Below are positions 25,218 to 29,744 of a DNA stretch of 64,000 bases, piece after piece. The notes below the pieces were generated by a model. That model was not told the origin of the DNA. It ran no database searches and saw only the letters and a program-made list of their open reading frames with translations. Source of the stretch: Escherichia coli. Its GTDB lineage: Bacteria; Pseudomonadota; Gammaproteobacteria; Enterobacterales; Enterobacteriaceae. Position 1 is the first letter of the stretch, and each line of letters begins with the position of its first letter. The DNA is taken from the NCBI RefSeq assembly GCF_016026235.1, contig NZ_CP065613.1. One strand, given 5' to 3'. A program made the translations under genes and the position numbers.

Positions 25218-25542
25218 GGTTCTGCTGCTTGGGTTACTGGTTGGCGCGGCGAATTATTGCTTCCGCTATTTGCCGCTGCGCCTGCGTGTGGGTAATGCCC
25301 GCCCAACCAAACGTGGCGCGGTAGGTATTTTGCTCGACACCATTGGCATCGCCTCGATATGCGCTCTGCTGGTTGTCTCTACCGCACCAGAAGTGATGCA
25401 CGATACACGCCGTTTCGTGCCCACGCTGGTCGGCTTCGCGGTACTGGGTGCCAGTTTCTATAAAACACGCAGCATTATCATCCCAACACTGCTTAGTGCG
25501 CTGGCCTATGGGCTCGCCTGGAAAGTGATGGCGATTATATAA
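25207..25542 (+). CDS. ygaH: L-valine exporter small subunit, AzlD family
   Basis: 111-aa hydrophobic ORF overlapping ygaZ by 11 bp. Confidence 0.85.
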
Positions 25543-25632
25543 CCCACAAGAATCATTTTTCTAAAACAATACATTTACTTTATTTGTCACTGTCGTTACT
25601 ATATCGGCTGAAATTAATGAGGTCATACCCAA

Positions 25633-26163
25633 ATGGATAGTTCGTTTACGCCCATTGAACAAATGCTAAAATTTCGCGCCAGCCGCCACGAAGATTTTCC
25701 TTATCAGGAGATCCTTCTGACTCGTCTTTGCATGCACATGCAAAGCAAGCTGCTGGAGAACCGCAATAAAATGCTGAAGGCTCAGGGGATTAACGAGACG
25801 TTGTTTATGGCGTTGATTACGCTGGAGTCTCAGGAAAACCACAGTATTCAGCCTTCTGAATTAAGTTGTGCTCTTGGATCATCCCGTACCAACGCGACGC
25901 GTATTGCCGATGAACTGGAAAAACGCGGTTGGATCGAACGTCGTGAAAGCGATAACGATCGCCGCTGCCTGCATCTGCAATTAACGGAAAAAGGTCACGA
26001 GTTTTTGCGCGAGGTTTTACCACCGCAGCATAACTGCCTGCATCAACTCTGGTCCGCGCTCAGCACAACAGAAAAAGATCAGCTCGAGCAAATCACCCGC
26101 AAATTGCTCTCCCGTCTCGACCAGATGGAACAAGACGGTGTGGTTCTCGAAGCGATGAGCTAA
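25633..26163 (+). CDS. mprA: MarR-family repressor MprA/EmrR
   Basis: 176-aa [35 protein letters not shown]...; precedes emrAB. Confidence 0.95.
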
Positions 26164-26210
26164 CGCGCATCTCGCTCAAAAATCCAGATTTATAAAAGAA
26201 AAAATGACTG

Positions 26211-26240
26211 GCCAGCATCGCAACATGCTGGCCTTTTTGG
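26211..26240 (+). terminator. Intra-operon hairpin with T-run between mprA and emrA (candidate attenuator)
   Basis: gccagcat-cgcaac-atgctggc followed by ctttttgg. Confidence 0.55.
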
Positions 26241-26288
26241 CAAGCAGGTCGGCTCAGCCGATGAGTTAAGAAGATCGTGGAGAACAAT

Positions 26289-27461
26289 ATGAGCGCAAAT
26301 GCGGAGACTCAAACCCCGCAGCAACCGGTAAAGAAGAGCGGCAAACGTAAGCGTCTGCTCCTCCTTCTCACCTTGCTCTTTATAATTATTGCCGTAGCGA
26401 TAGGGATTTATTGGTTTTTGGTACTGCGTCACTTCGAAGAAACCGATGACGCATACGTGGCAGGGAATCAAATTCAAATTATGTCTCAGGTGTCTGGCAG
26501 CGTGACGAAAGTCTGGGCCGATAACACCGATTTTGTAAAAGAAGGCGACGTGCTGGTCACTCTCGACCCGACAGATGCTCGCCAGGCGTTTGAAAAAGCC
26601 AAAACTGCACTGGCTTCCAGCGTTCGCCAAACCCACCAGCTGATGATTAACAGCAAACAGTTGCAGGCGAATATTGAGGTGCAAAAAATCGCCCTCGCGA
26701 AAGCACAAAGCGACTACAACCGCCGTGTGCCGCTGGGCAATGCCAACCTGATTGGTCGCGAAGAGCTGCAACACGCCCGCGACGCCGTTACCAGTGCCCA
26801 GGCGCAACTGGACGTCGCGATTCAACAATACAATGCCAATCAGGCGATGATTCTGGGGACTAAACTGGAAGATCAGCCTGCCGTGCAACAGGCTGCCACC
26901 GAAGTACGTAACGCCTGGCTGGCGCTGGAGCGTACTCGTATTGTCAGTCCGATGACCGGTTATGTCTCCCGCCGCGCGGTACAGCCTGGGGCGCAAATTA
27001 GCCCAACGACGCCGCTGATGGCGGTCGTTCCAGCCACCAATATGTGGGTGGATGCCAACTTTAAAGAGACGCAGATTGCCAATATGCGCATCGGTCAGCC
27101 GGTCACTATCACCACCGATATTTACGGCGATGATGTGAAATACACCGGTAAAGTGGTTGGTCTGGATATGGGCACAGGTAGCGCGTTCTCACTGCTTCCG
27201 GCGCAAAATGCGACCGGTAACTGGATCAAAGTCGTTCAGCGTCTGCCTGTGCGTATCGAACTGGACCAGAAACAGCTGGAGCAATACCCGCTGCGTATCG
27301 GTTTATCCACGCTGGTGAGCGTCAATACCACTAATCGTGACGGTCAGGTACTGGCAAATAAAGTACGTTCCACTCCGGTAGCGGTAAGCACCGCGCGTGA
27401 AATCAGCCTGGCACCTGTCAATAAACTGATCGACGATATCGTAAAAGCTAACGCTGGCTAA
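26289..27461 (+). CDS. emrA: Multidrug efflux membrane fusion protein EmrA
   Basis: 390-aa ORF from MSANAETQTPQQP...; N-terminal transmembrane anchor and coiled-coil region. Confidence 0.95.
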   Translation: MSANAETQTPQQPVKKSGKRKRLLLLLTLLFIIIAVAIGIYWFLVLRHFEETDDAYVAGNQIQIMSQVSGSVTKVWADNTDFVKEGDVLVTLDPTDARQAFEKAKTALASSVRQTHQLMINSKQLQANIEVQKIALAKAQSDYNRRVPLGNANLIGREELQHARDAVTSAQAQLDVAIQQYNANQAMILGTKLEDQPAVQQAATEVRNAWLALERTRIVSPMTGYVSRRAVQPGAQISPTTPLMAVVPATNMWVDANFKETQIANMRIGQPVTITTDIYGDDVKYTGKVVGLDMGTGSAFSLLPAQNATGNWIKVVQRLPVRIELDQKQLEQYPLRIGLSTLVSVNTTNRDGQVLANKVRSTPVAVSTAREISLAPVNKLIDDIVKANAG

Positions 27462-27477
27462 TCCAGAGGTGCGTGTG

Positions 27478-29016
27478 ATGCAACAGCAAAAACCGCTGGA
27501 AGGCGCGCAACTGGTCATTATGACGATTGCGCTGTCACTGGCGACATTCATGCAGGTGCTGGACTCCACCATTGCTAACGTGGCGATCCCCACTATCGCC
27601 GGGAATCTGGGCTCATCGCTCAGCCAGGGAACGTGGGTAATCACTTCTTTCGGGGTGGCGAATGCCATCTCGATCCCGCTTACCGGCTGGCTGGCAAAGC
27701 GCGTCGGGGAAGTGAAACTGTTCCTCTGGTCAACCATCGCCTTTGCTATTGCGTCGTGGGCGTGTGGTGTCTCCAGCAGCCTGAATATGCTGATCTTCTT
27801 CCGCGTGATTCAGGGGATTGTCGCCGGGCCGTTAATTCCGCTTTCGCAAAGTCTATTGCTGAATAACTACCCGCCAGCCAAACGCTCGATCGCGCTGGCG
27901 TTGTGGTCGATGACGGTGATTGTCGCGCCAATTTGCGGCCCGATCCTCGGCGGATATATCAGCGATAATTACCACTGGGGCTGGATATTCTTCATCAACG
28001 TGCCGATTGGCGTGGCGGTGGTGTTGATGACACTGCAAACTCTGCGCGGACGTGAAACCCGCACCGAACGGCGGCGGATTGATGCCGTGGGGCTGGCACT
28101 GCTGGTTATTGGTATCGGCAGCCTGCAGATTATGCTCGACCGCGGTAAAGAGCTGGACTGGTTTTCATCACAGGAAATTATCATCCTTACCGTGGTGGCG
28201 GTGGTGGCTATCTGCTTCCTGATTGTCTGGGAGCTGACCGACGATAACCCGATAGTCGATCTGTCGTTGTTTAAGTCGCGCAACTTCACCATCGGCTGCT
28301 TGTGTATCAGCCTCGCGTATATGCTCTACTTCGGCGCTATTGTTCTGCTGCCGCAGTTGTTGCAGGAGGTCTACGGTTACACGGCAACGTGGGCAGGTCT
28401 GGCCTCTGCGCCGGTAGGGATTATTCCGGTGATCCTGTCGCCGATTATCGGCCGCTTCGCGCATAAACTGGATATGCGGCGGCTGGTAACCTTCAGCTTT
28501 ATTATGTATGCCGTCTGCTTCTACTGGCGTGCCTATACCTTTGAACCGGGTATGGATTTTGGCGCGTCGGCCTGGCCGCAGTTTATCCAGGGGTTTGCGG
28601 TGGCCTGCTTCTTTATGCCGCTGACCACCATTACGCTGTCTGGTTTGCCACCGGAACGACTGGCGGCGGCATCGAGCCTCTCCAACTTTACGCGAACGCT
28701 GGCGGGGTCTATTGGCACGTCGATAACCACGACCATGTGGACCAACCGCGAGTCGATGCACCATGCGCAGTTGACTGAGTCGGTAAACCCGTTCAACCCG
28801 AATGCCCAGGCGATGTACAGTCAACTGGAAGGGCTTGGGATGACACAACAGCAGGCATCAGGCTGGATTGCCCAGCAGATCACCAATCAGGGGCTGATTA
28901 TTTCCGCAAATGAGATCTTCTGGATGTCAGCCGGGATATTCCTCGTCTTGCTGGGGCTGGTGTGGTTTGCTAAACCGCCCTTTGGCGCAGGTGGCGGCGG
29001 AGGCGGTGCGCACTAA
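27478..29016 (+). CDS. emrB: Multidrug efflux MFS pump EmrB
   Basis: 512-aa 14-TMS-type ORF from MQQQKPLEGAQL... with poly-Gly C-terminus. Confidence 0.95.
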   Translation: MQQQKPLEGAQLVIMTIALSLATFMQVLDSTIANVAIPTIAGNLGSSLSQGTWVITSFGVANAISIPLTGWLAKRVGEVKLFLWSTIAFAIASWACGVSSSLNMLIFFRVIQGIVAGPLIPLSQSLLLNNYPPAKRSIALALWSMTVIVAPICGPILGGYISDNYHWGWIFFINVPIGVAVVLMTLQTLRGRETRTERRRIDAVGLALLVIGIGSLQIMLDRGKELDWFSSQEIIILTVVAVVAICFLIVWELTDDNPIVDLSLFKSRNFTIGCLCISLAYMLYFGAIVLLPQLLQEVYGYTATWAGLASAPVGIIPVILSPIIGRFAHKLDMRRLVTFSFIMYAVCFYWRAYTFEPGMDFGASAWPQFIQGFAVACFFMPLTTITLSGLPPERLAAASSLSNFTRTLAGSIGTSITTTMWTNRESMHHAQLTESVNPFNPNAQAMYSQLEGLGMTQQQASGWIAQQITNQGLIISANEIFWMSAGIFLVLLGLVWFAKPPFGAGGGGGGAH

Positions 29017-29025
29017 GTACAACTA

Positions 29026-29052
29026 AGCCAGTTCATTTGAACTGGCTTTTTT
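29026..29052. terminator. Bidirectional hairpin terminator between convergent emrB and luxS
   Basis: agccagttca-ttt-gaactggct followed by tttttc, with A-rich run on the other side. Confidence 0.75.
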
Positions 29053-29663: not shown

Positions 29664-29735
29664 GAAAGACGCGCATTTGTTATCATCATCCCTGAATTCA
29701 GAGATGAAATTTTGGCCACTCACGAGTGGCCTTTT
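29664..29735 (+). ncRNA. micA: MicA (SraD) Hfq-dependent small RNA
   Basis: gaaagacgcgcatttgttatcatcatccctgaattcagagatgaaattttggccactcacgagtggccttttt matches the MicA sequence as I recall it, including its terminator hairpin; lies between luxS and gshA. Confidence 0.9.
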
Positions 29736-29744
29736 TCTTTTCTG

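Follow-up and report, generated by a model that had tools for sequence, protein, structure and literature searches.

A probable partial Rho-independent terminator between mprA and emrA within the mprA-emrAB transcription unit of Escherichia coli

In textbooks, the repressor gene mprA (emrR) and the pump genes emrA and emrB form one operon, and a G+C-rich hairpin followed by a run of T lies between the repressor gene and the first pump gene. The question raised by this locus is what that hairpin does to the transcripts that pass mprA. We analyzed it in a 64-kb stretch of the Escherichia coli chromosome, which is called the window here and to which positions refer unless MG1655 is named, together with related genomes and published transcript data. 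The hairpin and its T-run are very probably a Rho-independent terminator inside the mprA-emrAB unit that is less than fully efficient. The terminator and its 3′ end have already been published and are not a discovery; the element is real, functional and ordinary. The additions made here are modest, namely the conservation of the terminator in the Enterobacteriaceae, a stronger U-tract in Escherichia, natural variants in which the terminator is destroyed or duplicated, and a second hairpin.

The locus and its terminator hairpin

Positions 25540-26300 of the window matched 5417 of 5426 complete E. coli genomes at an identity of at least 95%, and the genes annotated in this region were ygaH, emrR (mprA) and emrA. 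The gene order in the RefSeq record of MG1655 is ygaZ-ygaH-mprA-emrA-emrB, followed by the convergent luxS. The features of the region are listed in Table 1. The stop codon of mprA is TAA, with its last base at 26163, and the mprA-emrA intergenic region of the window comprises 125 nt (26164-26288). The initial annotation had placed the hairpin between the mprA stop and the emrA start, and this placement is correct: the hairpin is located 46 nt past the mprA stop and 50 nt ahead of the emrA ATG (26289).

The window differs from MG1655 and from every other matched E. coli genome by the deletion of 1 nt near 26168, which is 42 nt upstream of the stem. The sequence here is CGCGCATC, compared with CGCGTCATC in MG1655 and in all matched E. 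coli genomes. The emrA ATG lies at 26289 in the window because of this deletion relative to MG1655. None of the 5417 matching genomes had an intergenic region 100% identical to that of the window. The difference lies outside the hairpin and is either a strain-specific deletion or a sequencing error.

Table 1. Coordinates of the features of the mprA-emrA region in the window and the sources on which they rest.
Feature	Position	Strand	Source
mprA (emrR) CDS, MarR-family autorepressor; upstream gene whose transcripts end at the terminator	25633..26163	+	ORF list; RefSeq annotation of identical DNA (MG1655, other E. coli)
A-rich tract AAAAGAAAAAA in the mprA 3′ UTR, 5 nt upstream of the stem	26194..26204	+	Sequence
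Terminator stem, 5′ arm, GGCCAGCAT	26210..26218	+	Sequence, terminator scan, fold
Terminator loop, CGCAAC	26219..26224	+	Fold
Terminator stem, 3′ arm, ATGCTGGCC	26225..26233	+	Sequence, terminator scan, fold
U-tract TTTTT	26234..26238	+	Sequence; published Term-seq 3′ end on the last T (26238 = MG1655 2811376)
Second conserved hairpin in the emrA leader, GUCGGC-UCA-GCCGAU, 6 pairs including one G-U	26248..26262	+	Folds, alignment
AAGATCGTGGAGAA block with the emrA Shine-Dalgarno (SD) sequence GGAG (26279-26282) and the emrA ATG (26289-26291)	26271..26291	+	Alignment, conservation 0.97, annotation
emrA and emrB, pump genes that seem to be reached only via read-through	26289..29016 (emrA 26289-27461; emrB 27478-29016)	+	ORF list, annotation; SMRT-Cappable-seq unit b2684|b2685|b2686 in the available part of the published list

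The elements at 26210-26240 are arranged in the order GGCCAGCAT-CGCAAC-ATGCTGGCC-TTTTT-GG. The initial annotation had described an 8-bp GC-rich stem with a T-run within 26206-26240. The hairpin and the T-run were found inside this interval as described, but the stem consists of nine perfect pairs instead of eight, of which six are G-C. The loop is 6 nt long, and five T follow directly 3′ of the stem before GG. The site thus combines the two elements of a Rho-independent terminator, a G+C-rich stem-loop and a U-rich tract directly 3′ of the stem. A U-tract of five residues followed by GG is shorter than expected of a strong terminator, and from this tract alone a sub-maximal termination efficiency is predicted.

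The terminator scan called the site. The local fold of the hairpin had an energy of −16.7 kcal/mol, with a z-score of −2.4 relative to shuffled sequences. A strict scan of both strands, requiring at least 9 perfect pairs, at least 5 G-C pairs, a loop of 3-8 nt and at least 5 T within the next 6 nt, returned 4 sites in the real window, including the mprA-emrA hairpin and the emrB/luxS terminator, compared with a mean of 0.01 site per window in 100 dinucleotide-preserving shuffles of the whole window. The minus-strand scan also called the hairpin because of the A-rich tract in the mprA 3′ UTR. A role as a bidirectional terminator appears to be disfavoured by the 5-nt spacer after the A-rich tract and by the lack of a convergent gene. 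The Rfam scan at permissive E-values assigned the region to no family, and its best hit was isrD with 17 bits against a gathering score of 37 (E = 2.2).

Two further terminators were seen in the same part of the window. A 10-bp hairpin at 29025-29048, with T-runs on both strands, is a bidirectional terminator shared by emrB and the convergent luxS; the luxS 3′ end in the published Term-seq data is 2814159(−) with about 209,000 reads (Adams et al. 2021, PMC7815308). The MicA sRNA gene is located at 29664-29736 between luxS and gshA, and its terminator hairpin (29714-29731) was found by the same terminator scan.

Transcript ends and read-through in published data

The initial annotation had named 3′-end mapping as a check on the hairpin, and uniform RNA-seq coverage without 3′ ends at the T-run as the outcome that would refute it. 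A published Term-seq experiment on MG1655 grown in LB to OD 0.4 mapped a 3′ end to 2811376(+), which is position 26238 of the window and the final T of the U-tract (Adams et al. 2021, PMC7815308, supplementary file 1). The sequence flanking this end is CTGGCCAGCATCGCAACATGCTGGCCTTTTT on its 5′ side and GGCAAGCAGG on its 3′ side. The end was classified as "orphan", was listed for LB OD 0.4 only and was represented by 861 reads, a small peak close to the lowest values in the available part of the list (PMC7815308). In the bicyclomycin data of the same study (PMC7815308, supplementary file 2), no Rho-termination region was listed at 28110xx-28114xx; for a poorly expressed gene, such an absence is weak evidence of independence from Rho. 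The RNA 3′ end within the U-tract in vivo comes from these Term-seq data and not from an experiment of our own.

Northern blots of mprA pointed to the same site. In the study of the sRNA UhpU, the main isoform was approximately 900 nt and not the 3.5-kb operon transcript, "to our surprise" in the words of its authors, who explicitly named the mprA-emrA hairpin a Rho-independent terminator on the basis of the Term-seq data of Adams et al. 2021 (PMC12704781, PNAS 2025). They also reported a second mprA transcription start site (TSS) inside codon 49 of ygaH, which gives the dominant 888-nt ygaH'-mprA RNA that is the target of UhpU (PMC12704781). Counting back 888 nt from the Term-seq end (2811376−888+1 = 2810489) leads to position 25352 of the window, within ygaH codon 49 (25351-25353), and the end of the 888-nt RNA is consistent with 26238. 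The classical mprA TSS is MG1655 2810745, or 25608 in the window. The initial annotation had the operon transcribed from the promoter upstream of mprA; the dominant terminated transcript originates from the TSS inside ygaH, and not only from that promoter.

Transcripts that pass the hairpin were described by SMRT-Cappable-seq (Yan 2018), in which the mprA locus is shown as Figure 1b (PMC6131387). The available part of its supplementary file 4 lists the unit b2684|b2685|b2686 (mprA-emrA-emrB) from the TSS at 2810745, and a novel unit b2682|b2683|b2684|b2685 from 2809568 (PMC6131387). Since units span mprA, emrA and emrB, polymerases cross the hairpin and termination is partial. SMRT-Cappable-seq gives the existence of read-through and no ratio. 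In the published data, the genes that flank the hairpin are co-transcribed, and terminated and read-through transcripts both exist, as is characteristic of a partial terminator within an operon. The position of the 3′ end, the dominance of the short isoform and the units over all three genes are established by these experiments.

We propose the following course of transcription. RNA polymerase would initiate upstream of mprA (TSS 25608) or inside ygaH (approximately 25352). Past mprA, the 9-bp G+C-rich hairpin would form while the polymerase pauses on the U5 tract, and most complexes would drop the RNA at approximately 26238, giving mprA-only transcripts of approximately 630 and 888 nt. The 3′ hairpin probably also shields these mprA-only transcripts from 3′ exonucleases. 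A minority of polymerases would read through and produce the mprA-emrA-emrB mRNA of approximately 3.5 kb. As a result, one MprA-controlled promoter would yield more transcripts of the autorepressor gene than of the pump genes. The mechanism of release, the efficiency of termination and the effect on the MprA:EmrAB ratio are what we infer here from the published ends and units and from the sequence.

Conservation and natural alleles

The comparative set was obtained by an MprA scan with one genome per species and at least 90% protein identity, which gave 80 loci. The genera in the set were Escherichia, Salmonella, Citrobacter, Enterobacter, Klebsiella, Raoultella, Leclercia, Lelliottia, Kosakonia, Kluyvera, Trabulsiella and others, but not Yersinia or Serratia. 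The emrA gene followed mprA in 79/80 loci with a spacer of 114-189 nt, and at the remaining locus the available DNA stops before emrA. The hairpin was present at the same place in all 78 distinct Enterobacteriaceae intergenic regions, with 9-14 pairs and energies from −12.4 to −28.3 kcal/mol.

The stem arms (GGCCAGCA/TGCTGGCC) were almost invariant across the 78 sequences. The majority-base frequency was 0.98 in the eight outer stem pairs, 0.62 in the loop and 0.66 at 45 four-fold sites of mprA. The loops comprised 46 different sequences of 3-8 nt across the species. In the alignment, 96.8% of cells were paired, compared with 13-49% when the partner was slid by 1-3 columns, and 5 pairs were changed on both sides. 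The covariation statistics from the MAFFT alignment are weak, as there is little variation in the stems and differences in loop length put the innermost pair out of register; separate folds of each sequence are more informative. At this innermost, closing pair, E. coli has U-A, E. albertii and E. whittamii have U-G, and other genera have C-G or G-C. A compensatory change from A-U to U-A was found in one Enterobacter (L075), and the outer G-C was replaced by A-U in some Kosakonia.

The U-rich tail had a majority-base frequency of 0.91. It reads UUUUUGG in Escherichia as well as in a few Kosakonia-like genomes. In most other genera it is UUUCUGA(C/U), and there the flanking GACA/UUUC bases extend the stem. 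In most non-Escherichia genera (for example L006, 3032-3162), the same pentamer is located on both sides of the hairpin, as CTGAC-AGGCCAGCA...TGCTGGCCT-TTCTGAC; these direct repeats may simply be the flanks of the A-tract and the U-tract.

Within E. coli, 2715 genomes (about half) matched a 44-nt hairpin query exactly. In the six variant genomes that were read, the changed positions are 26206 and 26209, immediately 5′ to the stem. The hairpin occurred at a median of one place per genome, with a maximum of 2, in the 5417 E. coli genomes. An assignment to the REP/BIME repeat family was rejected, as the element is single-copy in these genomes.

A second hairpin begins 10 nt after the U-tract and ends 26 nt ahead of the emrA ATG, and it has no U-tract of its own. 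The majority-base frequency of its arms was 0.97 (against 0.66 at synonymous sites), 98% of cells were paired, and 2 pairs were changed on both sides, while the loop was variable. This hairpin could be a 5′ stabiliser or an element that affects translation. Together with the terminator, the tail and the SD block, it makes up the 3′ half of the intergenic region, which is far more conserved than synonymous sites.

Two other observations concern the spacer as a whole. In its minimum-energy fold, 26164-26172 (CGCG.AUCU) pairs with AGAUCGUG at 26271-26278, just upstream of the emrA SD sequence; both blocks are conserved, no covariation was visible, and the z-score of the fold was only −1.8. A 21-codon ORF, MTGQHRNMLAFLASRSAQPMS, runs over both hairpins at 26204-26269 in K-12-like E. 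coli. Its ATG is replaced by ATA in some E. coli and by CTG in other Escherichia species and other genera, and judging from its sequence the ORF is probably not a gene.

Natural alleles of the region were also found. In E. coli AF57 from a blood culture (NZ_OZ546943.1; L082, 1055-1080 and 2495-2520), the 3′ arm of the terminator is interrupted by an IS4 element, with a target duplication of 12 bp, CGCAACATGCTG. This insertion destroys the hairpin and places emrAB 1.4 kb away from mprA. E. coli STK78-E (NZ_CP162185.1; L083, 945-1124) carries a perfect 90-bp tandem duplication, so that the terminator and the second hairpin occur twice in series before emrA. The mprA-emrA spacer of Enterobacteriaceae bacterium RIT714 (L020, 3032-3223) is 189 nt long, with an insertion of approximately 63 nt upstream of the hairpin, and the hairpin and the downstream part are intact. 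As for selected mutations, the available part of a report on E. coli W3110 evolved under CCCP describes six mutations in the mprA-emrA intergenic region besides mutations in the mprA coding sequence (bioRxiv 10.1101/392977).

Alternative explanations and known systems

The initial annotation had offered a partial terminator or an attenuator that sets the ratio of repressor to pump. The partial terminator agrees with the Term-seq end, the isoform of approximately 900 nt and the read-through units. In a regulated attenuator, read-through would be conditional and would be controlled through a leader peptide, an alternative RNA fold, an elongation factor or an sRNA acting with Hfq, with the second hairpin as a part of the device; we consider this very unlikely. 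The strong conservation of the terminator, tail, second hairpin and SD block is in line with such a device, as are the 21-codon ORF over both hairpins and the six intergenic mutations that the available part of the report describes in the CCCP-selected lines (bioRxiv 10.1101/392977). Against it, all nine stem pairs remained probable (0.87-1.0) when the upstream RNA in the fold was 75, 139 or 199 nt long, and neither these folds nor that of the nascent RNA contained a consistent alternative partner for the 5′ arm. The start codon of the ORF is not conserved, and leader-peptide attenuation through it was rejected for this reason. The translation of mprA ends 46 nt before the stem, too far for coupling to the ribosome, and there was no Rfam match. 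"Partial terminator" is preferred to "regulated attenuator" because an alternative structure and a conserved leader peptide are both absent. What the present analysis establishes is how strong the signal is, that it is conserved, and that no competing structure was found.

The same elements could also be read as one leader, in which the terminator, the tail, the second hairpin and the SD block would make the read-through into emrAB conditional; control could come from an RNA bound by Hfq or ProQ, from an elongation factor or from a change in transcription induced by drugs. This reading is hardly likely. If it were true, EmrAB would be under a layer of control after initiation, beyond repression by MprA, and the six CCCP-selected intergenic mutations and the natural IS4 and duplication alleles would be a route to altered efflux.

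Another explanation is a barrier to processing or decay, in which the operon would be transcribed without a stop, the mRNA cut in the emrA leader, and the upstream part trimmed by 3′ exonucleases to the hairpin. Term-seq and northern blots report steady-state ends, in which termination and trimming to a stable hairpin are indistinguishable. At −16.7 kcal/mol the hairpin is stable enough to block an exonuclease, and the A/U-rich leader downstream of it could contain RNase E sites. However, a 3′ end on the last U of a tract that adjoins the stem is the signature of intrinsic termination, and the conserved U-rich tail (0.91) would not be needed by a pure exonuclease barrier, which makes this explanation most unlikely. 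Release by purified RNA polymerase in vitro that is lost on mutation of the stem or the U-tract was not found among the experiments in the literature searched.

It is highly improbable that the terminator is complete and insulates two units, with emrAB transcribed from a start of its own within the intergenic region or close to it. As this arrangement would have it, the main isoform of mprA is monocistronic, and a TTGGCA or CTGACA hexamer lies 3′ of the hairpin. However, a consensus scan of the + strand from 25672 to 26647, of a kind that weak promoters escape, returned no sigma-70-like site. Only about 50 nt separate the U-tract from the ATG, and inspection of the alignment by eye found no acceptable −10 at the proper spacing there. 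The SMRT-Cappable-seq units start at 2810745, and no emrA-initiated unit is among those in the available part of the list (PMC6131387). Published papers describe MprA as repressing emrAB at the promoter of its own transcription unit. A promoter of emrA as the main route was rejected on the negative consensus scan and on hexamers that have no −10 partner. An extended −10-like sequence, TGAAATAAT, was rejected as the emrA promoter as well, as it occurs in some genera only, is absent in E. coli and would leave almost no leader. Transcription of emrAB seems to depend on polymerases that cross the hairpin.

That the palindrome is a protein operator in DNA, such as a second MprA site, and not an RNA structure is scarcely credible: the inverted repeat is perfect and its arms are highly conserved, but the arms lie 3 to 8 nt apart depending on the species and stay complementary through compensatory changes or G-U pairs, which indicates selection for an RNA hairpin and rules out an operator of fixed geometry, and a T-run with a mapped RNA 3′ end lies 3′ of the repeat. 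None of the alternative explanations is positively supported beyond the strong conservation of the whole emrA leader.

The partial terminator would explain how one promoter gives unequal outputs of MprA and EmrAB, as most transcripts would stop after mprA and the pump would be kept low. The regulator MprA has effects on capsule, motility and virulence genes as well. As regards annotation, what textbooks show as the mprA-emrAB operon is for the most part a monocistronic mprA unit from which some transcription leaks into the pump genes. This is useful in reading resistance-associated mutations of the mprA-emrA intergenic region.

The mprA-emrA terminator named in the UhpU study (PMC12704781) and mapped by Adams et al. 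2021 (PMC7815308) is the same element, with the same 3′ end, stem-loop and poly-U. Its conservation across genera, the difference in the U-tract between genera and the second hairpin are not part of those papers, and the strain of the window adds the 1-nt deletion.

Several intra-operonic partial intrinsic terminators of E. coli are known, such as the rplL-rpoB attenuator and T1 between rpsU and dnaG, and their efficiencies have been quantified. As in the mprA-emrA region, a hairpin with a U-tract lies between co-transcribed genes, the transcription of the distal genes is lowered relative to the proximal one, and the distal genes depend on read-through. Unlike in those two operons, the proximal gene in the mprA-emrA case is the repressor of the operon itself, so the terminator biases an autoregulatory loop. 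Attenuators controlled by ribosomes or ligands before resistance and efflux genes, such as the ribo-regulators found by Term-seq and leader peptides, likewise place a terminator in the leader of a drug-efflux operon. In contrast to these, the mprA-emrA region has no conserved leader ORF, antiterminator or Rfam family, and drugs are sensed by MprA at the promoter. REP/BIME elements are also G+C-rich intergenic palindromes in operons and can stabilise the upstream mRNA. To our knowledge, the mprA-emrA hairpin does not resemble the REP consensus, and, unlike REP/BIME elements, it is single-copy and is followed by a U-tract.
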